Of a stretch of DNA of 64,000 nucleotides, positions 18,217-64,000 are shown piece by piece (the first letter of the stretch is position 1; every line of letters begins with the position of its first letter). Location of the stretch: positions 5,118 to 69,117 of the forward strand of contig JAGCTE010000006.1 of NCBI GenBank assembly GCA_017963805.1, in the 5' to 3' direction. This DNA is from a bacterium. GTDB taxonomy: Bacteria; Auribacterota; UBA3054. Under the pieces are notes generated by a model that saw only the letters and a program-made list of their open reading frames with translations, searched no databases and was not told the DNA's origin. A program made the position numbers and the translations under genes.

Positions 18217-21375
<3,159 letters not shown>

Positions 21376-21418: not shown

Positions 21419-21495
21419 GCGCCCGTGGCTCAATTGGATAGAGCGTTTGGCTACGGACCAGAAGGTTAGGGGTTCGAGTCCCTTCGGGCGTACCA
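21419..21495 (+). tRNA. tRNA-Arg (anticodon ACG), CCA encoded.
   Basis: Hand-folded cloverleaf. Acceptor stem GCGCCCG/CGGGCGT (one G-U pair). D-arm GCTC-AATTGGATA-GAGC. Anticodon arm TTTGG-CTACGGA-CCAGA, so anticodon ACG. T-arm with GTTCGAGTC. Ends ACCA. Confidence 0.85.
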
Positions 21496-21532
21496 TATTT
21501 TCCGCCGGAGTTTCCGCTCCGGCGGTTTTTTT
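21438..21532 (+). repeat. 95-bp direct repeat, copy 1. It comprises the 3' part of tRNA-Arg (D-loop to CCA) plus the downstream terminator. It is identical to 28363..28457.
   Basis: The atagagcgtttggctacggaccagaagg...ccggcggttttttt stretch is identical in both places. The flanks diverge immediately outside it. Confidence 0.9.
21502..21532 (+). terminator. Rho-independent terminator after tRNA-Arg (ccgccggag-tttccg-ctccggcgg + T7).
   Basis: Perfect 9-bp GC-rich stem immediately followed by ttttttt. Confidence 0.7.
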
Positions 21533-21562
21533 GTTTTCAAATTGTGAACGCACCGCGTTCCA

Positions 21563-21589
21563 AATTCGTGGCACACTGTGCCACGAATT
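21563..21589. promoter_or_regulatory. Perfect 27-bp palindrome AATTCGTGGCACA-c-TGTGCCACGAATT. Candidate dimeric protein-binding or recombination site.
   Basis: 13-bp arms are exact reverse complements around a single central nucleotide. It sits 31 bp after the tRNA terminator. Confidence 0.4.
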
Positions 21590-21638
21590 CATCAAAAAGC
21601 GCTGAAAACAGTTAAATCATTGGTCACACGCAACTTCA

Positions 21639-21665
21639 AATTCGGTACACACTGTGTACCGAATT
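21639..21665. promoter_or_regulatory. Second perfect 27-bp palindrome AATTCGGTACACA-c-TGTGTACCGAATT, related to the first.
   Basis: Same outer half-sites (AATTCG...CGAATT) and the same central ACACTGT, 76 bp from the first copy. Both are preceded by ttcaaattcg / tccaaattcg. Confidence 0.4.
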
Positions 21666-21725
21666 CAGTACAAAGACAGGCTCGCCATAAATTGCAGATG
21701 ACCGGAAATAGCGCTCAGATATAAT

Positions 21726-23627
21726 CTACTCTGTTTGTCGGCGTTGAAAAACGTTGTTGTTAAGAACGCGATTCGTAGCGATATTCAAAGGTATTTCAAA
21801 ATTCTTCGGCCATTTGTGAGTTGCCGCGTCAAACATCTCTTCTCTGAATTCAGATCCGTCTTTTTCCATAGCCTGCGCAAGCACAGAATTAAAGTCCTGT
21901 TCATCAAGCGGATGTTCCTGACAATAACGCCATAGAGTTTCCTCACACTGCCAACTTATCCCGGAATTTTTCAGATCCTCGTCCGCTTTTTCGCCGCCGT
22001 AGCGCAAAGCTTGCTGAACGTTTTTGACATAATTGGTCTTGTCGCGAACAATCTGTGCGTAAAGAGCCGCGTTTTTGTGTCGCTTCCATTCCATCATGGA
22101 AAAATCTATGCTCGGAACATCAACCATAGAAAGTGTGAGAGCGCTGTAACTCTCACCGCGCTCACGTAAAAGTTCTGCCGCCATTATGTAAGCATAGGAA
22201 GTATATGTTAAGCATGTCGGATACTTATGTACGCTAAGCAAGTGAGACAAAGCCGCTGCCGAACGGTCTTCCTCAGTAAATCCAAAATCAAAGCGATGAA
22301 TTTCATGGAGCATTCTCCCGAGGAAAAAGTGCGCAGCCCCTTTGGTAAAACCATCTGAATTTTCCGGCAAAAGGAAAAAATTCATGAGGGTATAGGCCTT
22401 TTCATAATCTCCCTGCCAAAAAACGCTTTCCGCTTGCCAATACAGACGGCCTGCCGCTCCCGAGATCGCAAGTATACCTTTATATTTTTCACAATCTTCC
22501 AATCTATCTGAAGCATCAGCGATTCGCGCCTCAAACTCATCTATTTCGACAAAACGCTCAATATAATCGGACAAAGTCAGCGCGTTTGTCTCGCGCTGAC
22601 GCTGTTCCGGACTCCATAAATAAGCCGATGTTTCAATTATATTTTTCCAAGGTATAGCCTCGCTTCCTTTAAGAGAGAGATTTTTAGACCATTCCTCTCC
22701 TTCTTTTTTCATTTCTAAAAAAGCGTCCGGGATTTGCCTTCTTTCGTCCAGGAAATTTTCAGCGCTCTGTATAAAACGCATGGCATAAATCAAAACAGGC
22801 ATGCGGTTTTTATTATTTTGCTGTCGCAGCGCATAATTTTTCACATTATCTATGGCATCTAGAATCTTAATTTTTTCGCTGGAATTAGTTACGCAAAGGT
22901 AGGCGTCAAGGCAGGTTTTCGCTAAATTTGGAAAAGCGTTAACATTAACTTCCATCCACTTTTCCAAAAGTTGTAATTTTTCGCCTTCCGAAAAACCGCC
23001 TTTCAAAACAAGATTGAGCGTCGTCTCAAAATCAAGAGATTTGTCAGCACTCCTTAAAGATAGAATAAATTCACGCACTTCCTCGGTAACTTCAGGATGT
23101 TTTTCTCTAAATGAAAGCAGATACTCAATCTGGGGTTTATCAAGATTATCATACATGATAACCTCTTCATAAAGACGAAGGGCGTTTTTGATATCGTTTT
23201 GCTTGACGTAATATCTCCGCAAAGCTTGCTGGGCGTACTTGTATGAGAACCAGCGACGGCCGGCGGCTTTTTCACGGTATTTTTCCAAAACTGCCATCAG
23301 CAAAGCCGGAGCATTTCTTTGCGTTTCTGGGTCTTTCAAACTATAGACCGCGGCCAAACTTTCCAACACAAGATCTAAAGGTTCTCCGTTGGAAAGGAAA
23401 ACGCCCCTGCTCTCTTCGGCTTTAGCGGCAGCGTTAGCGAGTTTGACGGCTGTCCGCCATTGCTTTTCCTTGGCCGCATTTTCTATTTTCAAGCAACGTT
23501 CTGTCAGCCAGACGCTTCCTGTTATGTGAGGGCTGACAAGCCAGACACCCCTCTGAATATCTATGTTACCCAGGGAAAAAGAAGCCCATATGAAACTTAA
23601 GAAAAAGCAAAAAGTGTTCTTCATCAC
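21726..23627 (-). CDS. Family-D secreted helical (TPR-like) protein, copy D1, in the tRNA-flanked island.
   Basis: 633 aa with a signal peptide. The C-terminal ~250 aa are clearly homologous to the 62301..63560 product (YEKAYTLMNFFLLPENSDGFTKGAAHFFLG vs CKKAYRCMNYFLLPENKDDFSVGAAHYYLG; KYPTCLTYTSYAY vs QYKTCLTYIAYSY; TNRVLNN in both). The N-terminus is homologous to the 63557.. partial product. Confidence 0.6.
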   Translation of the reverse strand: MMKNTFCFFLSFIWASFSLGNIDIQRGVWLVSPHITGSVWLTERCLKIENAAKEKQWRTAVKLANAAAKAEESRGVFLSNGEPLDLVLESLAAVYSLKDPETQRNAPALLMAVLEKYREKAAGRRWFSYKYAQQALRRYYVKQNDIKNALRLYEEVIMYDNLDKPQIEYLLSFREKHPEVTEEVREFILSLRSADKSLDFETTLNLVLKGGFSEGEKLQLLEKWMEVNVNAFPNLAKTCLDAYLCVTNSSEKIKILDAIDNVKNYALRQQNNKNRMPVLIYAMRFIQSAENFLDERRQIPDAFLEMKKEGEEWSKNLSLKGSEAIPWKNIIETSAYLWSPEQRQRETNALTLSDYIERFVEIDEFEARIADASDRLEDCEKYKGILAISGAAGRLYWQAESVFWQGDYEKAYTLMNFFLLPENSDGFTKGAAHFFLGRMLHEIHRFDFGFTEEDRSAAALSHLLSVHKYPTCLTYTSYAYIMAAELLRERGESYSALTLSMVDVPSIDFSMMEWKRHKNAALYAQIVRDKTNYVKNVQQALRYGGEKADEDLKNSGISWQCEETLWRYCQEHPLDEQDFNSVLAQAMEKDGSEFREEMFDAATHKWPKNFEIPLNIATNRVLNNNVFQRRQTE

Positions 23628-24508
23628 AACATTGCCAGCGCCTCCACACGGCGCAATTCGCCAATAACAGAAACGATTAAGGGGAGCCTTTTCTTATCAT
23701 CTTTTTGCTCTTGCAGCCATTGTCTCAGAGCCCGGCAATAATCTCTTATAAATTCTGGTTTTTTAACGTCAAGTACGCTAGCCGCTCCAACTATAAAACA
23801 GTTCATTTCGCTTTCCCCGGCACAAGAATTATTTTTTAGCCAAGAGATTATTTTTTCTTGTTTCTTCTCCGCTGATATATCAGAGCGCAGAAAATCTCCT
23901 ATCATGAACAGCGCGTCTTTTTCTCCGGAAAAATCATCTAATAATTCCCCCAACCAGGTTACGCTATACGGCCTTTCCGCCGCTGCGTATAAGATGGTCA
24001 TCAAAGCGATTTTAGACGAAGAGTCATAAGCGAGCCATCTTCTGGCTGTCAGATCATGCGACCGCACGTCTCCCAAAGTCCAGTAATACGACATCAAAAC
24101 TCGAAAAAAGTCGACGTAACGAGCAGAAAACTTTTCTTCCGACAGTTCTTTAAATTCTAGCAAGGCTTTTTCCGTCAGTTTGGGCAGTTCCGGATCGTCG
24201 CGCCGAGCTTCGCTCAAGCATTCTATTTGGGTCAACCGTAAAGTAAGCGCCAGATCTTCTCCGCAGGCCAATTTTATACCAGCCACGGCTGAATCTAGCT
24301 TCTCACATTCAACGGACGCTCGCAAAAAATCCTTGCTTCGCATCAGCGCTTCTATGCGTAGTAAGCCTTCCTTTATAAGGTCGTCCTCTCCTTCATAATG
24401 CCGGCTGACATAACGCACGCCTTCTGTCTTTTCGCATCCGAAAACAGATCCCGCACAAAATGCCAAACAACAGCAAAATAAGAAGAGGCAAAGCTTACCC
24501 GGATTCAT
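23624..24508 (-). CDS. Hypothetical secreted protein (island cargo).
   Basis: ORF 23624..24577. The probable start is the internal MNPGKLCLFLFCCCLAFCAGSVFG signal peptide. No recognisable domain. Confidence 0.4.
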   Translation of the reverse strand: MNPGKLCLFLFCCCLAFCAGSVFGCEKTEGVRYVSRHYEGEDDLIKEGLLRIEALMRSKDFLRASVECEKLDSAVAGIKLACGEDLALTLRLTQIECLSEARRDDPELPKLTEKALLEFKELSEEKFSARYVDFFRVLMSYYWTLGDVRSHDLTARRWLAYDSSSKIALMTILYAAAERPYSVTWLGELLDDFSGEKDALFMIGDFLRSDISAEKKQEKIISWLKNNSCAGESEMNCFIVGAASVLDVKKPEFIRDYCRALRQWLQEQKDDKKRLPLIVSVIGELRRVEALAML

Positions 24509-25797
24509 TTTCTTCTGTGCAGGCAAAGCAGGCCAAGAATCACCAATCCAAGCATGCCCGGCTCTGGCAGTTCCCAAGCCAGCGTAGGCAGAGAAACGCC
24601 TTCTTCGATATACCAGACATGCTCAAAATCCCAGTTTTCAAAGGTTACTTCGCTTTTTAATTCGTCATGAGTTTTAGCAATAGCAAACGAATCATCCAAA
24701 CCGAATGTGGTGGTATCGAAATAGCAATTTGTAACAGTCAAGCTCTTTACTGATTTGAAAGCTAAAAATCCGCCGGTGTGTTTAAAATCTCCTTTTATAT
24801 TTCCTGTAGCATAGCATCTAGAAATGTTAACGCTCACATCATTTATGTAGTTTGTGGTTGAAAAATTTGGGGAAAATGATAGAGAGCCAATAAATCCTCC
24901 CGCAAAAGTCTCACGCCCTGGAAAAGAAGAATCCATTTCCAAATTGAACGCCGCATAGCAGTCCTCAATAGAGAACTCTGCATTGCCATCAGCAAGGAAA
25001 AAGCCAATTAACCCGCCAGTTTCACCAAAACCGGAAGAATATTCAGTATCATTCTCGGCATAGCAACGCGATATTCTCAAATGCGAATTTGTTTCCATCC
25101 TTATCTCACCTATCAACCCCCCTATAGAAGATTGTCCATTCACATGAACTCTGGCCTTGCATTGAGAAATAGAAATTGAATTGTTATATTGGGCATAGAC
25201 CTGGCCAATTAATCCGCCTATTCCTTCAACGGCCACTTCTTTAGGCATTTTTGATTCTATGGTTCCGCTAACAGAACAATTTTCAATAATGGAATTTCCC
25301 TGAGCTTTTCCAACCAAAATACCGGAGCCAAGCCGCCCACAATACTGGACTTCAGCGTCTTCAATCACTATGTTTTTTAAATGAAAATTCCCACATCTAA
25401 AAATACCAACATTTTCTACATATTCCATCGGCATTCTGATGTATGGGTTTTTGATGGCAAAACCTTGCCCATTATAATTTAAAATAAAAGGTTTTATATT
25501 TAAAATTCCAGAATAAGCAGTCATTATGACAGGAAATCCGCCTGCTTCACTCCACTCTTCGCCTTTGGTTTCCGAAGCCAAGATATCCTGCGTCTGCTTG
25601 CAATAAACGGTGGTTCCTTCCTGAAAGGTAGAAAGATTTTCGCTTAGCCAAACAAAGTTTTCCAAGCAAGCAATCTCATACGGACTATCTTCCGTCCCGT
25701 CTCCTTGCGGCTTCACAGGCGTCCTGTCGGCAAAAACTGCAACCACGCACAGAAAACTAAGAATTAAAAATATTTTTTTCATTGTAAACCTCCTCAT
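24505..25797 (-). CDS. Family-A surface protein, copy A1. It has GLUG-like (GG[LF]IG) repeats, likely a beta-helix, with a PEP-CTERM anchor.
   Basis: Signal peptide. N-terminal PxGDGTEDSPYEI..LENFVWL motif. Repeated GGLIG/GGFIG and I..CY motifs. Conserved C-terminal TFENWDFEHVWYIEEG block. Tail LPEPGMLGLVILGLLCLHRRK is a PEP-CTERM. Paralog of 49789..50976 and 53444..54655. Confidence 0.7.
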   Translation of the reverse strand: MRRFTMKKIFLILSFLCVVAVFADRTPVKPQGDGTEDSPYEIACLENFVWLSENLSTFQEGTTVYCKQTQDILASETKGEEWSEAGGFPVIMTAYSGILNIKPFILNYNGQGFAIKNPYIRMPMEYVENVGIFRCGNFHLKNIVIEDAEVQYCGRLGSGILVGKAQGNSIIENCSVSGTIESKMPKEVAVEGIGGLIGQVYAQYNNSISISQCKARVHVNGQSSIGGLIGEIRMETNSHLRISRCYAENDTEYSSGFGETGGLIGFFLADGNAEFSIEDCYAAFNLEMDSSFPGRETFAGGFIGSLSFSPNFSTTNYINDVSVNISRCYATGNIKGDFKHTGGFLAFKSVKSLTVTNCYFDTTTFGLDDSFAIAKTHDELKSEVTFENWDFEHVWYIEEGVSLPTLAWELPEPGMLGLVILGLLCLHRRK

Positions 25798-27170
25798 TCG
25801 GGATCTGGGGTTGGATCCGGGGCCAAGACAAAACGGCTCAGAATCGGACTGTTAATTTGTTGCGCTCTATATAGAATCTTCGGTCGCCCGAAGAAAAATG
25901 TATTGACCATTGACCAACTGGGATAACAGCCCCATCGTTGATCAGGAGGCGCTTTACGCGCCGCCAACGCGCTGGCGTATTCTATTATGTCGGCGCCGAA
26001 GTCAGACACATTGTTATTGAGTAGAAAATTTTCTGACCAAATCGGACTTTGATAAAAAGCAATGTCATCAATTCCGAAATTCATCGAATGATTTTTATTC
26101 CCAAATGTATCTTGACTGATACAAAGTAATGATATGCCTTCATAAATATAGTTTGTTGGAGAGTAAATGTCCGGACACAAAGGTTCGCAAGGCGTCACCA
26201 CGAAAGGTGTTCCATATGCCTCCCAAGTCGGATCCACCGCCCAGGCAACAGAATTAAAATTGGTTGCCACATCTTCTCTAAATATTCCCCATTCGCAACC
26301 ATCAAAATTGCATCCCAAGTTGGCAAATATAGTCCGTTCAGTTAGAGTAGGTCGCGAGGCTGCTAAGACCGCATAGGCATGGTATTGTAAATCAAGTAGT
26401 TCTCTTCCGTTAAAACGAACTTTCAAAGATCCTGTCGGGCTTGAATAATATAAATCTCCATGTCGTTCCATGAACATGTGGTATCCATCAGCGTATTCCT
26501 CCAACCACGTTTGCAAATCGCAATTTTGAATAATAAAATGCTGAGGATAATAATTATTTTTCCGGGTATCACCCCACAGTTTATAACCGCCGGAAGTTAT
26601 TATTTCCAATTTTCCTGGACCAATATACAAATCAGAATCTCTGACCCAAATTTTAACGCTGAGAAGATCATTGTCGTTCCTGTTCATTTGAACATCATCA
26701 TGATCTGGAGTCCCGTTCTTGTTGTCATCATCAAAATTCCAGTGAATAGGAACAGTAACTTGATCGCCAGTGTGCATCCCGTCTATTCCTCTCCTTTGCG
26801 AACTTAAAACAATATCCCTGTAATAAATATATTTTTCTTTTTCCAAGTGACAGATACGTCCTGTAGGATAAATATAATCAACACGAGCATAAGCAACAAG
26901 AACTACAGGCTCGCCTATATAACTTATGGTCAACGGGTTATACACGCTTGTACTCATAAGCTCGTTTCCCCACAAATCTCTTATTAAAAATACATTGGAA
27001 GTCACATCTCCCGAACAGTTAAAACTAACGGTAAACGTGTTGTTAGTTGTTCCTACCGCGACGCGAAACCTACCAAAAATGTCAATAGAATCCGGCACGT
27101 TTGCTAATGCCGCTTTGGCAAAACAAAAAGTGAACAATACAATTGAATGCAATATTATGTTTCTTTTCAT
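25794..27170 (-). CDS. Family-B secreted protein, copy B1 (HWNFDDDN / CEW motif family, function unknown).
   Basis: Signal peptide MKRNIILHSIVLFTFCFAKAALA. Shares VPIHWN(I/F)DDD(D/N)K and DGCEW motifs with the 50996..52432 and 59056..61059 products. Confidence 0.6.
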   Translation of the reverse strand: MKRNIILHSIVLFTFCFAKAALANVPDSIDIFGRFRVAVGTTNNTFTVSFNCSGDVTSNVFLIRDLWGNELMSTSVYNPLTISYIGEPVVLVAYARVDYIYPTGRICHLEKEKYIYYRDIVLSSQRRGIDGMHTGDQVTVPIHWNFDDDNKNGTPDHDDVQMNRNDNDLLSVKIWVRDSDLYIGPGKLEIITSGGYKLWGDTRKNNYYPQHFIIQNCDLQTWLEEYADGYHMFMERHGDLYYSSPTGSLKVRFNGRELLDLQYHAYAVLAASRPTLTERTIFANLGCNFDGCEWGIFREDVATNFNSVAWAVDPTWEAYGTPFVVTPCEPLCPDIYSPTNYIYEGISLLCISQDTFGNKNHSMNFGIDDIAFYQSPIWSENFLLNNNVSDFGADIIEYASALAARKAPPDQRWGCYPSWSMVNTFFFGRPKILYRAQQINSPILSRFVLAPDPTPDPE

Positions 27171-27171
27171 T

Positions 27172-28140
27172 TTACTCCTCCTTTTCCTTTAAGGATTCTG
27201 AGATAGCTTTCCTTACATCTTCGAATTCATATTCTTCCTTTTCGGGAAGTCTGTAATACCAGTAATTGTGATCGGGATGCTCAAAATAGCTTTCCATTTC
27301 TCTATGCCAATTAGGCATTTGTTCCATTACCCATGGTTCAAGCCGCATCTTACCATTAGCCAAGGCTCGTTCTATGCGCGCCCAACCTTCGGCATCTTGG
27401 AGGGTATATTTTTCTCGATTTGTTTCCCACCATTTTGCGTAATCTTTTCCTATTTGCGGATATCTATAGCCCTTTTGGAAAGGCTTTATAACCGCTTCTA
27501 AACTCTTGTCTCCATTTAGAAGCTCTTTGAAAATATACGGAAAGATATGATATCCCATGGAAGTAATGTCGCTGATAAGAAAAGACAAAATGAACTCCCT
27601 CGGATTTTCCCTCCTGTTTTCCTCCTGTCAGCAAGCATACCAGGCCTGCCAAATTTTTGGCATGTGTTTTCTTCCATATACGTACCAGAAATAATACAAA
27701 TCATCGGCACAGAAGATCCTATCGTCCTCTTTGCAATGGAACCAGGAGAAGGCCATGCATTTTGGCGCTTCATAGCCAAATTGCAAACCGCCGTGAATTC
27801 GCATCTGCTTTAAAACAGCTTCTGCCACTGTTCCAGTGGCGTACCCGTTACCGTCACAATATATTCTGGTCTCGACATCTATGCCCCAGCCGTCTTCTAC
27901 CAACTCAGTTAATTTTTCCCAAGCCTCAGAAGGCGACAAACTTTGCAACTGAATACGCGCCTCAAAACCCTCTTTGAACTGTTGTTTAATTTCACCAGGA
28001 TGCTTGTCCCAAGAAAAATCTTCCTTTTCAAAGATAACTACAGGCGTGTTCTCGGCCTTGATGAGCAAATTTGTATATGCCGCCGTCTCTATTCCAAAAA
28101 CCGGAATGGATAAGCATAAACATAAAAGCATTTTCTTCAT
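27172..28140 (-). pseudogene. Family-C secreted protein, copy C1, interrupted by a single in-frame TGA at a conserved Trp codon (28140..27631 plus 27627..27172).
   Basis: ORFs 27628..28140 and 27172..27588 are in the same frame. Across the junction the sequence reads WYAC*QEENRR...GYHIFPYIF, versus intact paralog C2 WYRCWQEENSR...GFYIFPYLA. The TGA at 27628..27630 replaces the TGG that all other copies have. Confidence 0.6.
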
Positions 28141-28362
28141 TGATTCTCTCCGCTTAATAGGCTAACTTTTAACTTCGCAATTATTGTAATAGATAAGTGT
28201 CCTTTTTGTCAAGTCTTGCTTTGCCAAAACGGTATGCCTGTTTTCACACGGCAAAACTTGCCTATTAATAACAAGTTTGAAACTTTTTTGACTACATTGC
28301 TTTGTAATAAGCTGTCGCAAAAACAAAATTTTTGTGTCAGGCTCGTTCGTATTACAGTTAAA

Positions 28363-28457
28363 ATAGAGCGTTTGGCTACGGACCAGAAGGTTAGGGGTTC
28401 GAGTCCCTTCGGGCGTACCATATTTTCCGCCGGAGTTTCCGCTCCGGCGGTTTTTTT
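28363..28457 (+). repeat. 95-bp direct repeat, copy 2. A 5'-truncated tRNA-Arg fragment plus terminator copy (att-like right end).
   Basis: Identical to 21438..21532. It lacks the tRNA acceptor 5' strand and D-stem, so it is not a functional tRNA. Confidence 0.9.
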
Positions 28458-28464
28458 ATAAAAA

Positions 28465-29631
28465 CTACCTGCTGCAGATCTCTTCCACAGCGTTCACGAA
28501 ATGCTCCCGGCCTTCGCTGATCTTGAGGGCGACTTTCAAATAATAGACAGGGGGAGGATCGAGTTCGACGCCGGCTCGCTTGGAGAAGCGGACCGCGTCC
28601 TTTTCGGTGATGAGGATGGCTTTGGCTTCAAATTGTTTCGCGGTCTCGTATATTTCCTCGATCTCGTAGCGCCTGAAGCGGTGGTGGTCCGGGAAGAAGC
28701 GTTTGCAAACGATGTTCGCGCCTTGAGTTTCCAATATTTTGACAAAGCCTTCTGGCTGGGCGATGCCGGTCACGACCATGACAGGCAGATCCTGCAGAAG
28801 CGAGAGGGGGAAGCGGCTTTCCGTATGCACGCTTATCAGTTCCGAGGGTTCGTAATAGCTGACGAGAATGTCGGCTTTCCTGTTGTACTTTCTGATCTCC
28901 TCTATGAGCTCCTCTTTCTTTTCCGGCGTCAGGTCGCGGGCTTTCGTGATGAGGATGTGGTCGGCTCTTTGCAGCTCTTCTATGGGCTCCCTCAAAAGGC
29001 CGGCGGGAAGCATCCTTTCGTATCCGAAGGGGCAGTTGGCGTCTATCAAGACCACGTCTTTCTGGCGGCGCAGCCTCATGTGCTGCATGCCGTCGTCAAG
29101 GATGATGGTGTCCACGCCGAATTCCCGCATGGCGTAGCGGGCGCCTCTCACCCTGTCGGGATCGGTTATGACGACGACGTTCTTAAGGTCCTGGGCAAGC
29201 ATGTAAGGCTCGTCGCCGGCTATCCTGGGGGAAAGCAAAAGTTCCTTGCCGTCGCAGACGACCTTGGTCTTGTTGCTGAAATCTTTGTATTTCCAGCGGA
29301 AACGCCAGCTGGGGGAATGCGATTTGTAGCCGCGGCTGACGATGGCCACTTTTCTTCCGCCTTTGCTGAGCGCGCGGGCCAGCTCTGCCACCACGGGCGT
29401 CTTGCCGGTGCCGCCGACCGTTATGTTGCCGACGCTTATGACGTAGCAGCCGGGCCAGTAGCGTTTTTTGTAGCCTTTTTTGTAAAGCCAGTTGCGGATG
29501 CCTATTATGCCGCCGTAAACTTTTCCCAGGAAGATCAGAATCGGAAGAATGACATATTTCCGCCAGCTTTTGTCGCCGCCGGAAATTAGTCTCTTCCATT
29601 TCTGCTCTCTTGAGAGTTTGTTTTTTTTCAT
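28465..29631 (-). CDS. lpxK: Tetraacyldisaccharide 4'-kinase (lipid A biosynthesis).
   Basis: P-loop ISVGNITVGGTGKTPVV followed by VAIVSRGYKS, typical of LpxK. N-terminal TM helix. Confidence 0.8.
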   Translation of the reverse strand: MKKNKLSREQKWKRLISGGDKSWRKYVILPILIFLGKVYGGIIGIRNWLYKKGYKKRYWPGCYVISVGNITVGGTGKTPVVAELARALSKGGRKVAIVSRGYKSHSPSWRFRWKYKDFSNKTKVVCDGKELLLSPRIAGDEPYMLAQDLKNVVVITDPDRVRGARYAMREFGVDTIILDDGMQHMRLRRQKDVVLIDANCPFGYERMLPAGLLREPIEELQRADHILITKARDLTPEKKEELIEEIRKYNRKADILVSYYEPSELISVHTESRFPLSLLQDLPVMVVTGIAQPEGFVKILETQGANIVCKRFFPDHHRFRRYEIEEIYETAKQFEAKAILITEKDAVRFSKRAGVELDPPPVYYLKVALKISEGREHFVNAVEEICSR

Positions 29632-39150: not shown

Positions 39151-40518
39151 GTGAACGACTATCAGGGAATGTGGGAGAAAGTCCTGGAGCTGGTGAAGCA
39201 TTCCACCGATCCAATGGTCTTTTCGGCTTTCTTCTCTTCTGTTGAACCTGTCAATTTTGCGGATGGCCTCTTTTCTATTCGTACCAACAACGCGTTGACT
39301 GCGGAGTATGTGAAGAAGAACCTGGGCTCCTTCATCGAGGAGAATCTCTCGAAGGAAGCCGGATCTCCCGTCACTTTGAAAGTCATCGTCAACGGTGAGC
39401 CGGAAGAAGAGAGCGCCCCGTCACCCGTTTCTCCTGATAGTGAAGTTAAGGAACCCGTTTTGCGCGCCCAGGAACCTCCGAAACTGAACCGCAATTACGT
39501 TTTCTCAAATTTCATTATCGGTCCTTCGAACCAGTACGCTCACGCCGCCGCCTATGACGTGGCCAACAATCCCGGCGTTTCCTACAATCCGCTTTTCATC
39601 TACGGCGGCTCCGGGCTCGGCAAAACGCACCTTATGCAGGCGATCGGCAACGCCATCTACGAAAGGGACAACAGCAAAAGGATCCTCTACATCACTTGCG
39701 AGAACTTCTGCTCCGATTTCCAGGCTTCCCTTTCCTTCAAGAACAACGTGCATCAGTTCAGGGAAAAATACCGCTCCAACTACGACGTCATTCTTATCGA
39801 CGACGTGCAGCATCTCTCCTTGGTGAACCGCACTCAGGACGAGTTCTTCCAGCTCTTCGAGTATCTTTTCGCCAACAATTGCCAGATCGTCATGACCTGC
39901 GACAAATCCCCGAAGGAACTGAAGAACATCAGCGACAGGCTCATTACGCGCTTCGAGTGGGGCGTGGTCGCCGACATTCAGCCGCCTGATTTCGAGACGC
40001 GCCAGGCCATCATCAAGAAGAAATGCCAGGACCGCGGTTTCAAGATCGACGACGACGTCTGCTCTTTCCTCGCCGGCAAGATCCAGAATCATGTCAGGGA
40101 AATTGAGGGCGTGCTCACAAGACTCAGGATCTACGCTTCCGTCCAAAACCAGCCCATCTCCATCAAGCTGGCGAAGGAATGCATGAAGGAATACGTTTCC
40201 GACCAGAACATTTCCCTGGACGTCATCAAGCGCGCGGTCGCCGCTTATTTCGACATAAGCCTAAGCGACCTCACCTCCCACAGAAGGCCGAAAAACATCG
40301 CGAAACCGAGGCAATTGGCCATGTTCCTCTGCCGTTCCATGACCAACAGCTCGCTTAACGAAATAGCCGCTTCTTTCGGCGGAAAAGATCACACGACGGT
40401 CCTTTACGCCTGCAAGAAAATAGAGGAAACGAAAAACAGCGACGACGAGCTTAGTTTCCAAATAGACGCTCTGAAAAAGTACATCATGAAAAATCGTCGG
40501 GAAGAATCTGACAGATGA
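39151..40518 (+). CDS. dnaA: Chromosomal replication initiator DnaA (GTG start).
   Basis: AAA+ Walker A GGSGLGKTHLMQAIGN and Walker B ILIDDVQHL. C-terminal DNA-binding domain block ASFGGKDHTTVLYACKKIEE. Confidence 0.9.
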   Translation: MNDYQGMWEKVLELVKHSTDPMVFSAFFSSVEPVNFADGLFSIRTNNALTAEYVKKNLGSFIEENLSKEAGSPVTLKVIVNGEPEEESAPSPVSPDSEVKEPVLRAQEPPKLNRNYVFSNFIIGPSNQYAHAAAYDVANNPGVSYNPLFIYGGSGLGKTHLMQAIGNAIYERDNSKRILYITCENFCSDFQASLSFKNNVHQFREKYRSNYDVILIDDVQHLSLVNRTQDEFFQLFEYLFANNCQIVMTCDKSPKELKNISDRLITRFEWGVVADIQPPDFETRQAIIKKKCQDRGFKIDDDVCSFLAGKIQNHVREIEGVLTRLRIYASVQNQPISIKLAKECMKEYVSDQNISLDVIKRAVAAYFDISLSDLTSHRRPKNIAKPRQLAMFLCRSMTNSSLNEIAASFGGKDHTTVLYACKKIEETKNSDDELSFQIDALKKYIMKNRREESDR

Positions 40519-40524
40519 AAAAAA

Positions 40525-40553
40525 GAGACCCTGAAAAACAGGGTCTTTTTTTT
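40525..40553 (+). terminator. Rho-independent terminator after dnaA (agaccctg-aaaaa-cagggtct + T8).
   Basis: Perfect 8-bp stem followed by tttttttt. Confidence 0.7.
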
Positions 40554-40910
40554 GACATTTTCTCCACAGTTTTTTCTCAGGTTAAAAATGGATCCAATAA
40601 AGTGTGAGTATTTTGAGAATAAAATCGGCCGGTTATCCACCTGTTGAAAAGAGGCCCTTTTTTCACTTCCATATTCACAGCTTTTTCAAAGCTCGAAAAT
40701 GTATATCATATTTAAACAAGCAAATTTATATAAATTTTTCTATCAACTCACAACCCATAATGATAATAATTCTTTAATAGATCTATAAATGATTTTTAAC
40801 AGTACCTTGTGTAAGAACTTGTAGGAATATGATTACACACAGGAAAAAGAAAGAGGAAATATGGTAAAATAGCTTACCTTGAAAATTAACCTCAATACAA
40901 ATTCAATCTT
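40554..40910. other. Candidate oriC. The dnaA-dnaN intergenic region holds a DnaA box (TTATCCACc at 40633..40641) and a ~200-bp strongly AT-rich DNA-unwinding element (about 40680..40880).
   Basis: AT-richness is striking against a ~58% GC background. The location is the classical dnaA-dnaN spacer. The DnaA box was read directly. Confidence 0.55.
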
Positions 40911-42005
40911 ATGAAATTCACTTGCGCCATTTCCGACCTGCGCGACGCCGTGCAGCTTCTGCAGCCTGTCTGTTCAAACAAACCGGCTTTCCCAATAGTA
41001 GCCAATATTCTGATCCGCACGAAGGAAAATTCCGTCGAGCTAACCGGCACAGATCTTGACATCACAATAAAGACTTCCATCGAGGCTTCCGTGGAAAAAG
41101 AAGGCGAGACCACCGTTCCCGTCCGCTACATGAGAGACACTTTGATGAAGATCAAAAGCGTCGCCCAGATCAGCGTGGAAGTCGATGAGAACAACGTGAT
41201 AAAGATCACGGCCGGCGAAAGGATCAAATGTAACTTGAGAGGCGTGGCCGCCGCCGACTTCCCCTCCTTCCCGGTCCTCAGCGAATGCGAATCCGTTTCC
41301 ATTCCCGCCAAGGAATTCTCGAAGATGCTCCGCTACACCGGCTACGCCATGAGCCATGACGAGCAGCGTTACATTCTGAACGGCATCTGCTTCTCTTTCG
41401 GAGAACAGCTGGACGTCGTGGCTACCGACGGCAGAAGGCTTGCCAAATACACCGTGCCTGAGATCAAAACGGAAAAAGTCAGCCAGATCATCATTCCTGT
41501 AAAAGCCATCAACATGATGCAGCAGCTTCTCGCGGGCGACGATCCCGTTTCCATGCGCTTCTCGTCTTCTCAGGTCGAAATAATCGTCGGGCGCAACACG
41601 CTTGTCGCGCGTCTGATGGACGGCCATTATCCCGATTACAAGCAGGTCCTGCCGAAAAACAAATCTTTCTCCTTGACTTTGAATTCCGGCGATTTCTCCA
41701 ACGCTGTCGAGCTCGCCTCCGTCGTCACGGACAAAAACAAACAGGGCGTCGTCAAACTGAGCCTGGCGGCCGGGAAGATGAAAGTCTCCGCCCAGACGGC
41801 CGACATCGGCGAAAACAGTTCCGAACTTGAGACCGAGTACGCCGGCGAACCGATGGACATTTCCTTCAACCCGACTTTCCTTCTCGACGTTTTCAGGAAC
41901 ATCGACGAGACGGAAGTCACGATGGACGTCATAAACCCCATCAGCCCGACCGTCATAAGAACCACGGACAACTTCATCAGCATCATCATGCCGATGCGCT
42001 TCTAA
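40911..42005 (+). CDS. dnaN: DNA polymerase III beta sliding clamp.
   Basis: 364 aa. Three-domain clamp pattern starting MKFTCAISDLRDAVQLLQPV. Located directly after dnaA. Confidence 0.85.
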   Translation: MKFTCAISDLRDAVQLLQPVCSNKPAFPIVANILIRTKENSVELTGTDLDITIKTSIEASVEKEGETTVPVRYMRDTLMKIKSVAQISVEVDENNVIKITAGERIKCNLRGVAAADFPSFPVLSECESVSIPAKEFSKMLRYTGYAMSHDEQRYILNGICFSFGEQLDVVATDGRRLAKYTVPEIKTEKVSQIIIPVKAINMMQQLLAGDDPVSMRFSSSQVEIIVGRNTLVARLMDGHYPDYKQVLPKNKSFSLTLNSGDFSNAVELASVVTDKNKQGVVKLSLAAGKMKVSAQTADIGENSSELETEYAGEPMDISFNPTFLLDVFRNIDETEVTMDVINPISPTVIRTTDNFISIIMPMRF

Positions 42006-49722: not shown

Positions 49723-49788
49723 TTCTACGAGTTGTTTTTTATAAAATATTCTAGAAACGGTTTTCATTTTATTATCGAGGGACATGTT

Positions 49789-50976
49789 ATGAAAAAAGCA
49801 TTGGCTTTGTTTTTGCTCATAGCCTGCACCAGTCTTTTCGCGGAAGACGTCTCCGTAAAGCCCGCGGGTGAAGGCACCGCGGAAAGTCCCTATTTGTTCG
49901 ACAGCTTGGAAAACTTTTTCTGGCTAAGAAAACAAACCTCCGAAATGGATCCCAACGTTCCGGTCTATTGCAAGCAGATAAAAGACATCGACGCCAGCGC
50001 CACGCAGCAAGGCGGCGATTACGCATGGTCGGACATAAACTTTTCCCAAAACAACCTTTTCGTCTACGATGGTCAAGAATATACTATCTACGGTCTTGAA
50101 CCGAACGAAAAAGGCGCCCTTTTCGGCACCGGCTACATGCAGCTCAAAAACATCCGAATACAAGGCGCGGAAGGGATCAAGACCTGCGCTTTGGCGAAAA
50201 ACTTATCTTCAGACAAAAGCAGAAACGGCTGTTTTGAGAATTGCTATATCAAAGGGCTTTTGGTAGAGACGCCAGCATTAGCAGATACAGTTAGAGGCAT
50301 GTTCATAAAAATCGAAGATTGTATCGTTGAAGCGGACATAGAAATAAAAAACGAGAAAACATCAAGCGGCGCTTTAATAAACTTTATGTACATTAAGGGA
50401 GGAACAAACAGCGTAAGAAAAACTTGTTTTAAGGGAAAAGTAAAAACAAAACCTCTATCGCACGTTTGTGGGTTAACGGTAACTTTGACATTAGGAAGCG
50501 TGCTTAACAACACCGAACTTAAAATAGAAGATTGCTACACGGATCTAACCGTGGAATGCGATCCTGATGACAGACATACCGTCACCGGACTAATAGGCGC
50601 TGCGGATATGAGCATTTACTCGAACGTAGTTTTGAGTATCGAGCGTTGCTACACGACGTGCGAGGCAAGCGAAAGCATGGATTATGGCGCTGCATACATT
50701 TATCAACTGACAAATACTGTCAACACGTTGAACATAAAGGGCTGTTATTACAGAGAGGCTCCACATTTCACCGACGATTACGCGATCGGAAAGACCGATG
50801 AGGAAATGAAGCAACAGGCCACTTTTGAAAACTGGGACTTTGAGAATGTCTGGGACATCGACGAAGGCAAAACCATGCCTTATTTCATATCCGAACTTCC
50901 CGAACCGACAGGAATGGCAATTATGTTTTTGATGCTTCTAGTAAAAATCGGAGACTCTAAAATAACAAAAAAATAA
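49789..50976 (+). CDS. Family-A GLUG-like repeat surface protein with a PEP-CTERM-like anchor, copy A2.
   Basis: Start taken at MKKALALFLLIACTSLFA (signal peptide; the ORF track starts 19 codons earlier). PAGEGTAESPYLFDSLENFFWL N-terminal motif. I(K/E)DCY repeat units. ATFENWDFENVWDIDEGKTMPYFISELPEPTGMAIMFLMLLV tail. Confidence 0.65.
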   Translation: MKKALALFLLIACTSLFAEDVSVKPAGEGTAESPYLFDSLENFFWLRKQTSEMDPNVPVYCKQIKDIDASATQQGGDYAWSDINFSQNNLFVYDGQEYTIYGLEPNEKGALFGTGYMQLKNIRIQGAEGIKTCALAKNLSSDKSRNGCFENCYIKGLLVETPALADTVRGMFIKIEDCIVEADIEIKNEKTSSGALINFMYIKGGTNSVRKTCFKGKVKTKPLSHVCGLTVTLTLGSVLNNTELKIEDCYTDLTVECDPDDRHTVTGLIGAADMSIYSNVVLSIERCYTTCEASESMDYGAAYIYQLTNTVNTLNIKGCYYREAPHFTDDYAIGKTDEEMKQQATFENWDFENVWDIDEGKTMPYFISELPEPTGMAIMFLMLLVKIGDSKITKK

Positions 50977-50995
50977 AAGGTCAACAGGAAATCAC

Positions 50996-52432
50996 ATGGA
51001 AAAAGGAATCGAAAAAGAACAAACATTCTGGCTTGTTTTGGCGACAAGTTTTGTGATTTTGAAAAGTTTAACTATATATGCCTATCAAACAGAATTTCTG
51101 AATATTATTGGTAATACCAACGTGGCAATTGGAAAATCATCGGTGTCATATGACATTGATTATAATGTTAATGGCAATATTTTGAATTGCCATTCAAGTG
51201 TCTTTGATGTAGAAGGCGATGTCCTTGACGAAAGCGTTCCTGGCAGCCAGAATCTTGATCTGTTTTTTACCGCACCCTCTCATGAGTGCGTTTTGATTAT
51301 TGAGGCTTCAATAACTTATCAAACATATATATATCCATGGGAATATCATGTCCTTTCAGCAACTAGAAATGTAAATGTTCAAAAGCCGTTTTTGCATACC
51401 ATTAGAACAGGCTTAGACGGTGTTACTTATGAAGACAACAGCATAGCTGTGCCCATTCATTGGAATATAGATGATGATGACAAATCCGGGTATGGCGGAG
51501 GCTCCAATGCAGATTATGGGGAAGATTATAGACAATACGAATTTTTGTCTAGCGGTATTGATGACGATTTATATAGTATACAAGCAAGCGTAACAAATGC
51601 CGATTTTAATGCATCTGGTTGTATATTAAAAATAAAAACCCCAGACTCTATGCGTTTGTGGTTTTCTCAAAACAAAAGCACGCTATGCTGTGATACGAAT
51701 AGCATTTATAGAACGCGTTGCAACATTGTAAATTGGTTCAATACTCACGCAAACTCAGCGGGAAACAGGTTGTATGTCGAATGGGTGGTTCCGCCAAACA
51801 CGACTACAAACGAATGTATTGAGTTTTACTGTAACGACATTCAATTTGCCGAATTGCGTTATAAAGGTTATGCCGTTACGGTTGGAGGGCTACCAAACAA
51901 AGCAGAAAGAGCGTTTTTTGAAACAAATTGCTATTTTTTGGATGGGTGCGAATGGCGTATTGCACCCGGCGGCGGAACTCACGTGCATGATCGCAATTCC
52001 TTATCGGAATCTATAGATCCAACCTGGGAGAGATACGGGGAAGAGTTTGTTGCAACAACCAGCGCACCGCTCTGCACAAACATTTATTTTTTGCGTACAG
52101 CAATGTATAATAACTTCCAATGCCGTTGCATCAGCATGGATTCCTTTTATGACCAGAATCACATATTTAGCGAAGCCGACGCAACGGCTTTTTTCACAAT
52201 CTATAATTTCTGGCATGATAATTTCTCAAATATCCGCTTTACAGCGATATCATATACTACAACGGACAGTTTGCGGCACGCAAAATTAATGATGCCAATA
52301 GGGTTAATTGTCATTCTTCTTGGGCAATGGTTTCAAGCCGTTTTTTCAATAGGCCAAAAATCGTTCATAGAGCCGAGCAGCTTGGACCAATTAAAACAAT
52401 TCAAAAAACTTACATTATGGTTCCATCGCTAG
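50996..52432 (+). CDS. Family-B secreted protein, copy B2 (HWNIDDDD / CEW motif family).
   Basis: N-terminal hydrophobic segment. VPIHWNIDDDDKSGYGG and LDGCEWRIAPGG motifs shared with B1 and B3. Markedly AT-rich coding sequence. Confidence 0.6.
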   Translation: MEKGIEKEQTFWLVLATSFVILKSLTIYAYQTEFLNIIGNTNVAIGKSSVSYDIDYNVNGNILNCHSSVFDVEGDVLDESVPGSQNLDLFFTAPSHECVLIIEASITYQTYIYPWEYHVLSATRNVNVQKPFLHTIRTGLDGVTYEDNSIAVPIHWNIDDDDKSGYGGGSNADYGEDYRQYEFLSSGIDDDLYSIQASVTNADFNASGCILKIKTPDSMRLWFSQNKSTLCCDTNSIYRTRCNIVNWFNTHANSAGNRLYVEWVVPPNTTTNECIEFYCNDIQFAELRYKGYAVTVGGLPNKAERAFFETNCYFLDGCEWRIAPGGGTHVHDRNSLSESIDPTWERYGEEFVATTSAPLCTNIYFLRTAMYNNFQCRCISMDSFYDQNHIFSEADATAFFTIYNFWHDNFSNIRFTAISYTTTDSLRHAKLMMPIGLIVILLGQWFQAVFSIGQKSFIEPSSLDQLKQFKKLTLWFHR

Positions 52433-52467
52433 ACCCGGAAGGTAATTCTTTGGAGGAGGAATAAAAT

Positions 52468-53427
52468 ATGATGCTAGTTGTTTGTATAGTTTTATTCTCA
52501 TCTATTGTTTTTGGAATAGAGCCGGAAAGGTTTACTTCGTTATTGGAAAAAGCGGGGCAAACGCCTGCTATTGTTTTTGAAAAGGACGATTTTTCTTGGG
52601 ATAAATATCCGGCGGAAGTCAAAACGAATTTCATTGATGGCGTTAACGCGCAGGACCAACTTAACAAACTGGCTCCTTCTGAAACGATTCCCATCTTGTT
52701 TGATTTACTTGAAAACGGCAAGGACATCGAAAAAGCGATTCCTTTATATCTTGAAAAACACGGGTATTACACCAATTCATTTACCGAAGAAATTTATAAG
52801 CAAATAAGAGATCAAGGCGGGATTAGTTGCGGGTACAGCGGACTGGGATCGTTAGCGTTTCCCTGGCTAACGAAGAAATATAGAGGTAAAGATTTCAACG
52901 AACGTGAGATCCAGTACTTCTGGTGGGTTTATGACAGAAAACATCTGCCTGAAATCTGGCAAACTTGGTATCGCTGCTGGCAGGAAGAGAACTCCAGACC
53001 GGAACCGAGAAAATATGTGCAAACACGTTTGCTTTCTGACGTTTCGTGTTTGGGATTTTATATCTTCCCTTACCTTGCGGAAACCCTGAAAAACGATAAG
53101 AGTTTGGAAGCGATTGTTGACATTTTTAAATCTTATCCGTGCTTTCCCATCAAAGGAGATTTTCAATTGTGGTGGGAAAATAACGAGGCTAGATACGCTT
53201 TTCCGGAAGCGAAAGGTTGGAATCACGCTCTAGAGATCATTCGCACAGAAAAATTAGCAGTATATGGATCGGCAAAGGAGAATATGTTTTTGTGGCACGA
53301 GCTTGCAGAAAAATATTATTCTGGCTATAATGTAAATCGGTATTGGTATTATTTTCTTTCCGACAAGGAAGAAATAAAAGAAGAAGATGTTACTGAGGCG
53401 ATTTGCAAAGCAATAGAAGACAAATGA
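52468..53427 (+). CDS. Family-C secreted W/Y-rich protein, intact copy C2.
   Basis: Signal peptide. FEKDDFSWDKYP, YFWWVYDRKHLPEIWQTWYRCWQEE and YWYYFLSDKEE motifs. It is homologous over its whole length to the C1 pseudogene pair and to C3 at 61099..62304. Confidence 0.6.
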   Translation: MMLVVCIVLFSSIVFGIEPERFTSLLEKAGQTPAIVFEKDDFSWDKYPAEVKTNFIDGVNAQDQLNKLAPSETIPILFDLLENGKDIEKAIPLYLEKHGYYTNSFTEEIYKQIRDQGGISCGYSGLGSLAFPWLTKKYRGKDFNEREIQYFWWVYDRKHLPEIWQTWYRCWQEENSRPEPRKYVQTRLLSDVSCLGFYIFPYLAETLKNDKSLEAIVDIFKSYPCFPIKGDFQLWWENNEARYAFPEAKGWNHALEIIRTEKLAVYGSAKENMFLWHELAEKYYSGYNVNRYWYYFLSDKEEIKEEDVTEAICKAIEDK

Positions 53428-53443
53428 TTTTAAAGGAGCGTTT

Positions 53444-54655
53444 ATGAAAAAAATATTTGTCTATATTTTTGTGCTTACAGGTTTGGTTTTCGCCGATTGT
53501 GGTCCCATAAAGCCCTTAGGCAAAGGGACACATGAGGATCCTTTTCTTTTTGCGCAGATCGGTAATTTTGCTTGGTTTGCGAACAATTATAAAAAGATCG
53601 AACATGGCCCAATCGTTTATTGCGTGCAGGTAAACGATATTGACGCCACGAAATCAAAAGACTGGTGGCGTTTCCCTATAATGCGGACGGATGATTATAT
53701 TTTGAATTACGATGGGCAAGGATATTCGATCAATAATCTTTGCATGGGCTGGTGTGATAACGAAACTGGCGGACTGTTCACGGAAGGCGTTTTCCAGTTG
53801 AAAAACATAAACCTTATTGAAGCGGAAAAGAACAGATATGAAAACACCGTCGGACTTTTAGTTGGGAAGCTATACGCGGGAAAAGGGCAGGAGGCGTTTG
53901 TCCGAAATTGTCATGTACAGGGAAAAACGACATACTGGCTTGCCAGCGCGTTTATCGGTAAGTTAACGGTTGGAAAAGGCGGCAAAATTGAAATAAGCGA
54001 TTGTTCCGTTGACGCGGAAATCAAAGACGGACCTGCGGGGCTGATCACGACGGTAAACAACCACGGAACATTGACGATTAAAAACACATCGATTAAGTGT
54101 CAAATCGATTATAATATCGATCCTTTGTCTTGGGGCGGAGATGTGAAGACCGCCGGTTTTATAAATCAGATTTTATTGTATAAAGGGTCAAAAACGAATA
54201 TCGAAGATTGCTATTCCGATGTTGATATTAATATTATGGTGAGATCCGCTGTCGCTTCCGGCTTTATAGGCGAATTGTTCAATCAGGACCATAGAGAGAG
54301 AGTCGATGTTGCGATCAAGCGTTGTTATTCTACAGGAACTATAAACAAGACCAACGGTTACGCGACGGCAAGTTTCCTATCCATAGTGGACAATCTCTAT
54401 ACCAACGAAGAGACCATAATTGTAAAGGATTGCTATTACAATTCCACGTCCTTTAAAAAAGGCGATAAATACGCGCTTCCCAAGACAGAAGAAGAGATGA
54501 AACAGTTGGCCACCTTCGAAAACTGGGACTTTGAGAATGTTTGGGACATCGATGAAGGCGAAAGCATGCCTTATTTCATATCCGAAATTCCTGAGCCCTG
54601 CGGAATGCTTGTGCTTCTTCTTTTGCCTTTGTTTTTAAGAAGAAACAAAAATTAA
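53444..54655 (+). CDS. Family-A GLUG-like repeat surface protein with a PEP-CTERM anchor, copy A3.
   Basis: Signal peptide. I(E/K)DCY / I(K)RCY repeat units. ATFENWDFENVWDIDEGESMPYFISEIPEPCGMLVLLLLPLFLRRNKN gives a PEP + TM + basic tail. Confidence 0.7.
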   Translation: MKKIFVYIFVLTGLVFADCGPIKPLGKGTHEDPFLFAQIGNFAWFANNYKKIEHGPIVYCVQVNDIDATKSKDWWRFPIMRTDDYILNYDGQGYSINNLCMGWCDNETGGLFTEGVFQLKNINLIEAEKNRYENTVGLLVGKLYAGKGQEAFVRNCHVQGKTTYWLASAFIGKLTVGKGGKIEISDCSVDAEIKDGPAGLITTVNNHGTLTIKNTSIKCQIDYNIDPLSWGGDVKTAGFINQILLYKGSKTNIEDCYSDVDINIMVRSAVASGFIGELFNQDHRERVDVAIKRCYSTGTINKTNGYATASFLSIVDNLYTNEETIIVKDCYYNSTSFKKGDKYALPKTEEEMKQLATFENWDFENVWDIDEGESMPYFISEIPEPCGMLVLLLLPLFLRRNKN

Positions 54656-61059: not shown

Positions 61060-61098
61060 AACACAATTAAAATATTCTTCACATTAAGGAAAATTCCT

Positions 61099-63560: not shown

Positions 63561-64000
63561 GAAACACGTTTGGAAAAATATTGTTTTTGGCGGTTGTTTT
63601 CTGCGCCTGCAATTGCTTTTCCGGGCACATAGACATCGTCAACGGAGTGTGGGCGGTCTCCAAGAACATGACGAAGAACCAGGAGATAGGAGGGAAACTA
63701 AGGGAGATAGAGGCGGTTGCCCGGCAGGACACCGACAAGGCGGCCGAGCTTTGCAAGGAGCTGAAAGAGTCGCTTGACGATCCCGAGATCTATACGGACG
63801 ACGGGGAGTATCTGCCACTGGTGCTGGACAGCATGTGGCTGTATTACGCGGCGCATAAAGGTTTGCAGGGAAAAGCTGTGCTTACGGAAGCACAAAGGCT
63901 GATAGAGGAATACGCCGAAAAGGCGGAGGGGCAGAGATATTGTGCGTACAAGTATCTTTATCATCGCATAAGAGGGTATTACTACGGCAAGAAAGACAAT
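63557..64000 (+). CDS. Family-D-related secreted protein, N-terminal fragment, truncated by the right window edge.
   Basis: ATG at 63557 overlaps the D3 stop (ATGA). MRNTFGKILFLAVVFCACNCFSGHIDIVNGVWAVS...CAYKYLYHRIRGYYYGKKDN is collinear with the D1 N-terminus MMKNTFCFFLSFIWASFSLGNIDIQRGVWLVS...FSYKYAQQALRRYYVKQND. Confidence 0.5.
   Translation, partial: MRNTFGKILFLAVVFCACNCFSGHIDIVNGVWAVSKNMTKNQEIGGKLREIEAVARQDTDKAAELCKELKESLDDPEIYTDDGEYLPLVLDSMWLYYAAHKGLQGKAVLTEAQRLIEEYAEKAEGQRYCAYKYLYHRIRGYYYGKKDN

Follow-up and report, generated by a model that had tools for sequence, protein, structure and literature searches.

Introduction

Elements that integrate into tRNA genes leave a characteristic footprint, the basis of the Islander principle, in which the target gene is regenerated at one end of the insert and the fragment that it displaced lies at the other (PMC4383910). 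Among islands in tRNA genes (tDNA islands), flanking repeats of 15-221 bp and sublocations at the D-loop and the anticodon loop have been reported, and 27 of the 162 tDNA islands in a Klebsiella survey had no integrase (10.1101/2020.11.02.365908). A related class, the cis-mobilizable elements (CIMEs), was described among the decay products of streptococcal elements of the integrative and conjugative (ICE) and of the integrative and mobilizable (IME) type, and keeps the attachment sites attL and attR while lacking the genes for integration (PMC5704250). Here, we analyzed a 64-kb stretch of bacterial DNA (contig JAGCTE010000006.1 of assembly GCA_017963805.1, hereafter the window, whose numbering we use throughout) that contains an island between lacZ (18217-21351) and lpxK (28465-29631). 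We conclude that this island, at 21533-28362, is probably what is left of an integrative element that targeted a tRNA gene: CIME-like, non-autonomous and without a recombinase of its own.

The island resembles a CIME in being flanked by putative attL and attR sites at the 3′ end of a tRNA gene and in containing cargo only, without genes for integration and transfer. In contrast to the streptococcal elements, it carries no conjugation or relaxase remnants and hence no evidence of descent from an ICE or IME, no tandem partner element was seen, and its host is an uncultured rumen lineage (metagenome-assembled genomes, MAGs, labelled UBP3) rather than a Firmicute. With the tDNA islands of the Islander and Klebsiella work it shares a regenerated tRNA and a displaced 3′ fragment at its ends, variable presence, a low GC content and a repeat of 95 bp, and because both the length of this repeat and its start site lie inside the published ranges, we counted them in favor of an integrative island. 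It differs from these in lacking an integrase, which Islander-type definitions expect, in its very small size (6.8 kb, a single operon) and in that its low GC content belongs to the cargo family anywhere. The locus belongs to a known type of decayed genomic island and does not represent a new class of element; its practical value is modest, as integrase-less tRNA islands are already well known. It does show tRNA-gene targeting and island decay at work in a rumen lineage that has not been cultured and is known from MAGs alone.

The tRNA-Arg gene and its 95-nt repeat

ARAGORN identified a single tRNA gene in the window, and a repeat search found that 95 nt, beginning inside this gene, recur exactly and in the same orientation at a spacing of 6925 nt. 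The features at the two ends of the island are as follows:

21419-21495, plus strand: intact tRNA-Arg(ACG) gene, the putative regenerated target at the attL end (ARAGORN; Rfam tRNA, 62.8 bits)
21438-21532, plus strand: left copy of the 95-nt repeat, putative attL core (repeat search, 100% identity; terminator at 21502-21525 plus T-run)
28343-28362, plus strand: decayed copy of tRNA positions 1-19 (TCGTTCGTATTACAGTTAAA), internal to the island and adjoining the right repeat (Rfam and in-register comparison)
28363-28457, plus strand: right copy of the 95-nt repeat, a displaced 3′ tRNA fragment with its terminator and putative attR core, 8 nt from the lpxK stop codon

The repeat extends from tRNA position 20, at the end of the D-loop, to the CCA end and continues through a 6-nt spacer into a terminator with a 10-bp stem and a T-run; its start thus lies 12 nt 5′ of the anticodon loop and its end past the CCA. 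A chance origin was excluded, because no other repeat in the region approaches this match. The initial annotation of the window had described an intact tRNA-Arg followed by an exact 95-bp copy of its 3′ part, and both its coordinates and its description were correct.

Next to the right repeat, we found what looks like the remainder of a second tRNA. A further Rfam match, at 28343-28417, was weak (30 bits vs a gathering score of 29) yet covered a tRNA over its full length, and the 20 nt beside the repeat, compared in register with tRNA positions 1-19, were identical at 9 of 19 positions. Transitions account for 7 of the 10 differences, and 6 of the 7 acceptor-stem pairs can still form; identity and pairing combined reach this level in only 0.2-0.5% of background 20-mers (joint frequency 0.002-0.005). 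Identity drops abruptly at tRNA position 19/20, from 100% to about 47%, a sharp step that is expected if the tRNA copy of the element was conserved only in the part that rebuilds the gene. Judging from the sequence, we interpret the decayed 5′ half as the P-side of a tRNA-derived attP, and its resemblance to the tRNA would fit both such an attP and the attL/attR structure.

Empty and occupied sites in related genomes

We gathered related genomes through LpxK and compared their junctions with that of the window. In five related lineages (L011, L031, L013, L049 and L050) the site was empty, with lacZ, the tRNA gene, the terminator and lpxK in succession, the 95 bp present once, and the lpxK stop codon reached ~8-19 nt after the terminator. 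In L011, L013 and L031 the two flank alignments overlapped by exactly the 95 bp. Flank identity to the window was about 92-94% for L011 (MAG UBA3054), about 89-92% for L031 and about 85% for L013, and the LpxK proteins of L049 and L050 were 77-78% identical. Since clean empty sites occur in five lineages, the island is a true insertion that is polymorphic between species. The comparison of the lacZ-tRNA-lpxK junction that the initial annotation had proposed was thus positive, and its reading of the repeats as the attL/attR footprint of an insertion into a tRNA gene is borne out by the exact repeat, the empty sites and the decayed 5′ tRNA half. A domain search of the flanking genes likewise agreed with its placement of the island between lacZ and lpxK.

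In the species of the window itself, represented by contigs ~99.95% identical to each other, every contig that spans the site contained the island and both repeats, and the island appears to be fixed. Several assemblers never collapsed the repeat in this species, which makes it unlikely that the empty sites of the relatives are assembly artefacts. The tRNA-Arg gene was identical in all lineages, and its terminator occurred in two lineage-specific versions (L036, L049 and L050 compared with 21496-21532 of the window); both terminator copies of the island were of the version found in the window's own species cluster.

Many metagenome contigs of the same species end within the 95-bp repeat (L004, L005, L007, L009, L022 and L023), and two run from repeat to repeat. 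Breaks in the assembly graph explain these ends most simply; strain heterogeneity or circular forms would fit too.

Non-coding ends of the island

The non-coding part of the island amounts to ~420 bp, in which we located a hairpin module, three copies of the motif TGTTTTCA and a predicted promoter:

21532-21539, plus strand: first TGTTTTCA copy, at the junction of repeat and island, candidate arm-type binding site
21533-21675, no strand assigned: hairpin module at the left end of the island, with two perfect 13+1+13 palindromes (21562-21590 and 21638-21666) and TGAAAACAGTTAAA between (motif search, DNA fold)
21603-21610, minus strand: second TGTTTTCA copy, candidate arm-type binding site
28183-28212, minus strand: top sigma-70-like promoter of the island (TTGACA-18-TACAAT, 11/12), predicted, upstream of an otherwise promoterless operon
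28239-28246: third TGTTTTCA copy, candidate arm-type binding site

Within the window the palindrome motif is restricted to the hairpin module (0 expected), and a DNA fold of 21496-21730, which takes in the tRNA terminator hairpin as well, gave z = -7.9. The palindromes have been kept across species through compensatory changes. The window contains four copies of TGTTTTCA, three of which fall inside the ~420 bp of non-coding island ends, and 8- and 9-mers are common to both arms. We suggest that the promoter, the palindromes and the TGTTTTCA motifs represent the arms of an attP. The sequence ACAGTTAAA is also common to both island ends (at 28354 and 21608).

Other roles for the palindromes were considered and rejected. 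An origin from IS200/IS605 or repetitive extragenic palindromic (REP) elements was not supported, the motif being confined to this site in the window and the fetched loci and having no match in IMG/VR. As terminators of the adjacent gene D they lack T-runs, were not flagged by terminator prediction, and lie upstream of YhcG in a sibling species. Rfam found nothing on the island ends besides the tRNA.

The island operon and its copies at other loci

The interval between the repeats is filled by open reading frames on the minus strand only, five genes transcribed in the order C, B, A, a 294-amino-acid (aa) unknown ('hyp') and D:

27172-28140, minus strand: gene C (fragments 27172-27588 and 27628-28140), a pseudogene in the window by one nonsense change (tblastn vs paralog, strain comparison)
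25794-27170, minus strand: gene B, predicted secreted protein whose N-terminal half consists of tandem Ig/FN3-like beta-sandwiches (structure model)
24505-25782, minus strand: gene A, GLUG-motif protein with a signal peptide and a PEP-CTERM-like C-terminal tail (ELPEPGMLGLVILGLLCLHRRK) (Pfam Glug, 3e-7)
23624-24508, minus strand: gene 'hyp', 294 aa, with an N-terminal hydrophobic, signal-like segment (294-aa call in same-species contigs)
21726-23627, minus strand: gene D, last of the operon, predicted secreted TPR-like alpha-solenoid (632-633 aa; AlphaFold, Foldseek)

We found the same five-gene operon at two further loci, at 96% (L034:432-6859) and 82.5% identity (L032:8986-15398), in unrelated neighborhoods. 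Homology to the window was confined to 21720-28148, that is, from the ribosome-binding site of C to ~25 nt past the D stop codon, and neither copy had a tRNA, a hairpin module or a flanking repeat; the promoter-bearing segment 28149-28362 had no counterpart in either. GC content is ~0.42 between the repeat copies vs ~0.56 outside, and in L032, for which long flanks were available, the operon likewise forms a block of ~0.40 in a genome of ~0.56. Low GC hence goes with this gene family at every location and is no sign of recent foreign origin.

As the operon copies occur without att sites, operon and att backbone are separable, and the island is composite, combining a backbone of ~0.5 kb with a promoterless operon of 6.4 kb. 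The initial annotation had further proposed that the element delivered the cassette. This part found no support, because an operon that sits in unrelated neighborhoods without att sites need not have been delivered by an att element. The more interesting lead from this locus is, in our view, the same promoterless operon at three unrelated loci with sharp boundaries.

In being a promoterless unit with sharp boundaries that is found in several contexts and would take its promoter from a platform, the operon recalls an integron cassette. The likeness is a resemblance only: the operon comprises five genes, the flanking repeat is a tRNA fragment, and attC-like site, IntI and attI are all lacking. 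An actual integron cassette was rejected, as there was no attC-like site or conserved hairpin after the operon in L032 and L034 and no IntI or attI in the window.

Searches for a recombinase and a parent element

In Pfam, NCBIfam and PADLOC, no model of a recombinase, an excisionase or a transposase matched any of the island open reading frames, consistent with the initial annotation, which had listed only minus-strand genes and no integrase between the repeats. The island is filled by its open reading frames, and the model of D and the confidently modelled N-terminal half of B would be non-enzymatic repeat folds. Recombinase domains were also absent from the large open reading frames of the window as a whole. 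Searches of IMG/VR with protein B, the hairpin motif and, from the repeat, its terminator section and the 3′ part of the tRNA yielded no parent element, attP or circular junction, a metagenome scan brought up a further empty site and nothing else, and a reconstructed 510-nt attP, compared with annotated phages and plasmids, matched in its generic tRNA part only.

Several known types of element were discarded. A split SSV-type integrase across the att site is out because an integrase would not fit into the reconstructed attP region, which measures just 510 nt from the first operon gene to the last. Hijacking of a XerCD/dif-type system is out by position, the island lying ~11 kb from dnaA/dnaN and the repeat being a tRNA fragment. 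A prophage or phage satellite is out, given that no phage domains were found in Pfam and neither a B homolog nor the att sequence in IMG/VR.

The tRNA-lpxK gap as a hotspot

Among close relatives, the gap between the tRNA gene and lpxK occurs in four states: empty, with the island, with a hairpin module and YhcG, or with a gene for a 296-aa protein. Sibling species (L012 and L042-L045) have the same left junction and hairpin module, which is 94% identical between the window and L012 and tandemly duplicated in these species; the insert (L012:9938-11372) carries a gene for a YhcG/DUF1016 PDDEXK nuclease, which PADLOC assigned to the candidate defence family PDC-S02 (E = 1.6e-138). A further species (L036-L041) has about 95% identity to L013, in which the site is empty, and carries a lone promoterless gene with a GC content of 0.416 between the lpxK stop codon and the tRNA terminator (L036:11168-12120); this gene encodes a 296-aa secreted protein of no detectable family. 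Selection largely forces the near-coincidence of the junctions in these species, because the terminator and the lpxK stop codon are just ~8 nt apart at the closest empty sites. Overall, the tRNA-lpxK site is a general hotspot, and the gap provides a ready marker for strain typing and for the hunt for the missing recombinase. The genes dnaA and dnaN (39151-42005) lie ~11 kb from the island, which places the hotspot near a probable origin of replication.

Origin of the island

We suggest that the island arose by recombination between the tRNA-Arg(ACG) gene, acting as attB, and a tRNA-derived attP on a circular element. Such an event would have regenerated the tRNA at attL and, at attR, would have joined the decayed 5′ tRNA half borne by the element to the displaced 3′ tRNA fragment and its terminator. 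The catalyst would most likely have been a tyrosine-type integrase, since lost from the island or never encoded there and then supplied in trans. What remains today would be a ~0.5-kb backbone of att arms (promoter, two palindromes and three TGTTTTCA motifs) around the 6.4-kb promoterless operon, whose five products comprise two unknowns besides a predicted PEP-CTERM/GLUG protein, Ig-like beta-sandwich protein and TPR-like solenoid. From this arrangement we infer catalysis of the integrase type, a role of the motifs as arm sites and any mobility at the present day.

A number of observations weigh against such an origin. The similarity of the 5′ half is based on just 20 nt, and the clustering of TGTTTTCA was spotted post hoc. 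No helper integrase was found in the 64 kb of this genome that were inspected, and no attP-bearing element or circular junction turned up in the viral, metagenome, phage and plasmid collections. No empty site occurred among the same-species contigs that span the locus, and the operon has moved independently of att sites. Finally, the sibling species L012 and L042-L045 have a single copy of the 95 bp and none on the right-hand side, and the unrelated cargo of L036-L041 has no repeat around it, so that insertion at this gap does not always leave a duplication; the sibling arrangement without attR is not explained by our model.

Other routes to the same structure have to be weighed against these points. 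A circular or transformed DNA with the tRNA 3′ end and terminator of this species cluster could have entered by RecA-dependent Campbell integration, through a single crossover within the 95 bp and without any site-specific recombinase. This would account for repeat copies that are 100% identical and match the cluster-specific terminator as well as for the lack of an integrase, and the insert of hairpin module and YhcG in the sibling species, whose junction coincides with the repeat's right boundary, is a possible source of such a circle. We nonetheless consider it unlikely, as 95 bp is a short substrate for RecA, the choice of a tRNA gene and the motif clusters in both arms would be left without an explanation, and the decayed 5′ half implies that the element had carried its tRNA copy for a long time. 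The contents of the gap may also have been swapped by homologous recombination in lacZ and lpxK, with the repeat as a relic of an older, unrelated event. The four gap states among closely related species, the discordant identities on the lacZ and lpxK sides (87.3% vs 91.9% in L012, for example) and the separability of operon and att backbone all speak for such turnover, which would explain how the island spread, but not how the duplication and the pseudo-tRNA originated. Turnover is compatible with integration at the tRNA gene and no replacement for it, and as the full explanation it seems distinctly improbable.

The arrangement could instead be ancestral, an old duplication of the tRNA region with genes inside, and the empty sites later deletions between the repeats. 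Indeed, recombination between the 95-bp repeats, or excision by an integrase, would restore a perfect empty site, and empty sites alone would for this reason give no polarity. With five lineages empty, among them outgroups with a different terminator sequence, with zero divergence between the repeats vs about 50% in the adjacent 5′ half, with unrelated cargo in other relatives, and with the island state suggested by present sampling to occur in one terminal lineage only, an ancestral arrangement is very hard to credit. In a more far-reaching view, the ~0.5-kb att backbone would serve as a miniature platform for expression by capturing surface-protein operons of low GC that lack promoters and that relocate from locus to locus in this rumen lineage, with nucleotide-sharp, repeat-free boundaries, by an undescribed form of recombination. 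We regard this as a long shot; if true, it would amount to an operon-scale, integron-like shuffling system for cell-surface variation. A decayed tRNA-targeting element thus remains our preferred reading.

Cargo genes and their apparent decay

Signal-like N-terminal segments are present in B, C, D and the 294-aa unknown as well as in A, and the predicted proteins suggest that the cargo forms a secreted or surface complex, a function that we could not assign more closely. The AlphaFold model of D (mean predicted local distance difference test score 78.8) is all-alpha, its Foldseek matches were TPR scaffolds only, and it had no match in Pfam. Of the B model, the N-terminal half is confident and the C-terminal half poorly modelled. 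The PEP-CTERM-like motif was seen by eye in A and in both of its paralogs in the window (49732-50976 and 53444-54655), none of which matched a PEP-CTERM hidden Markov model in Pfam or NCBIfam. The 294-aa protein had no family match in Pfam, NCBIfam or PADLOC, PADLOC matched none of the cassette proteins, and sequence searches of the PDB with B, D and A returned nothing useful. The families are tiny in public data, with 5 matches for B and 8 for D among 5.8 billion proteins.

Gene C is disrupted in the window by a TGG to TGA change at 27628, and a tblastn search with its paralog at 52468-53427 covered both fragments. The pseudogene status given in the initial annotation therefore stands for the window and does not extend to most other strains, in which C is intact (322 aa). 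Across about 15 same-species contigs, in a comparison with L001-L030, only about 13 sites within the island varied, and about a third of these were accounted for by four independent loss-of-function changes: in C, the nonsense change at 27628 (the allele of the window), another at 27987 and an 11-bp deletion (27581-27591), and in B, a 1-bp deletion at 26985 that splits the gene in strains L002 and L003. We rejected slippage at repeats, and with it phase variation, as their cause, the changes being two different nonsense substitutions, an 11-bp and a 1-bp deletion. The losses in C and B suggest relaxed selection or selection for loss, and the surface-protein cargo looks as if it is decaying or selected against. 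In this rumen lineage, the surface-protein operon is an accessory one that turns over quickly.

Two more low-GC clusters of paralogs (types A, B, C and D, 22-43% protein identity) lie in the window at 49732-54655 and 59056-63997, the D paralog at 62301-63560; both are packed tightly between housekeeping genes (rsmB/GH120 and panC), and flanking repeats were not evident. A more distant organism (GCA_024712465.1, L035:513-9503) has a seven-gene cluster with a D-like gene whose product shares 37% protein identity with island D.

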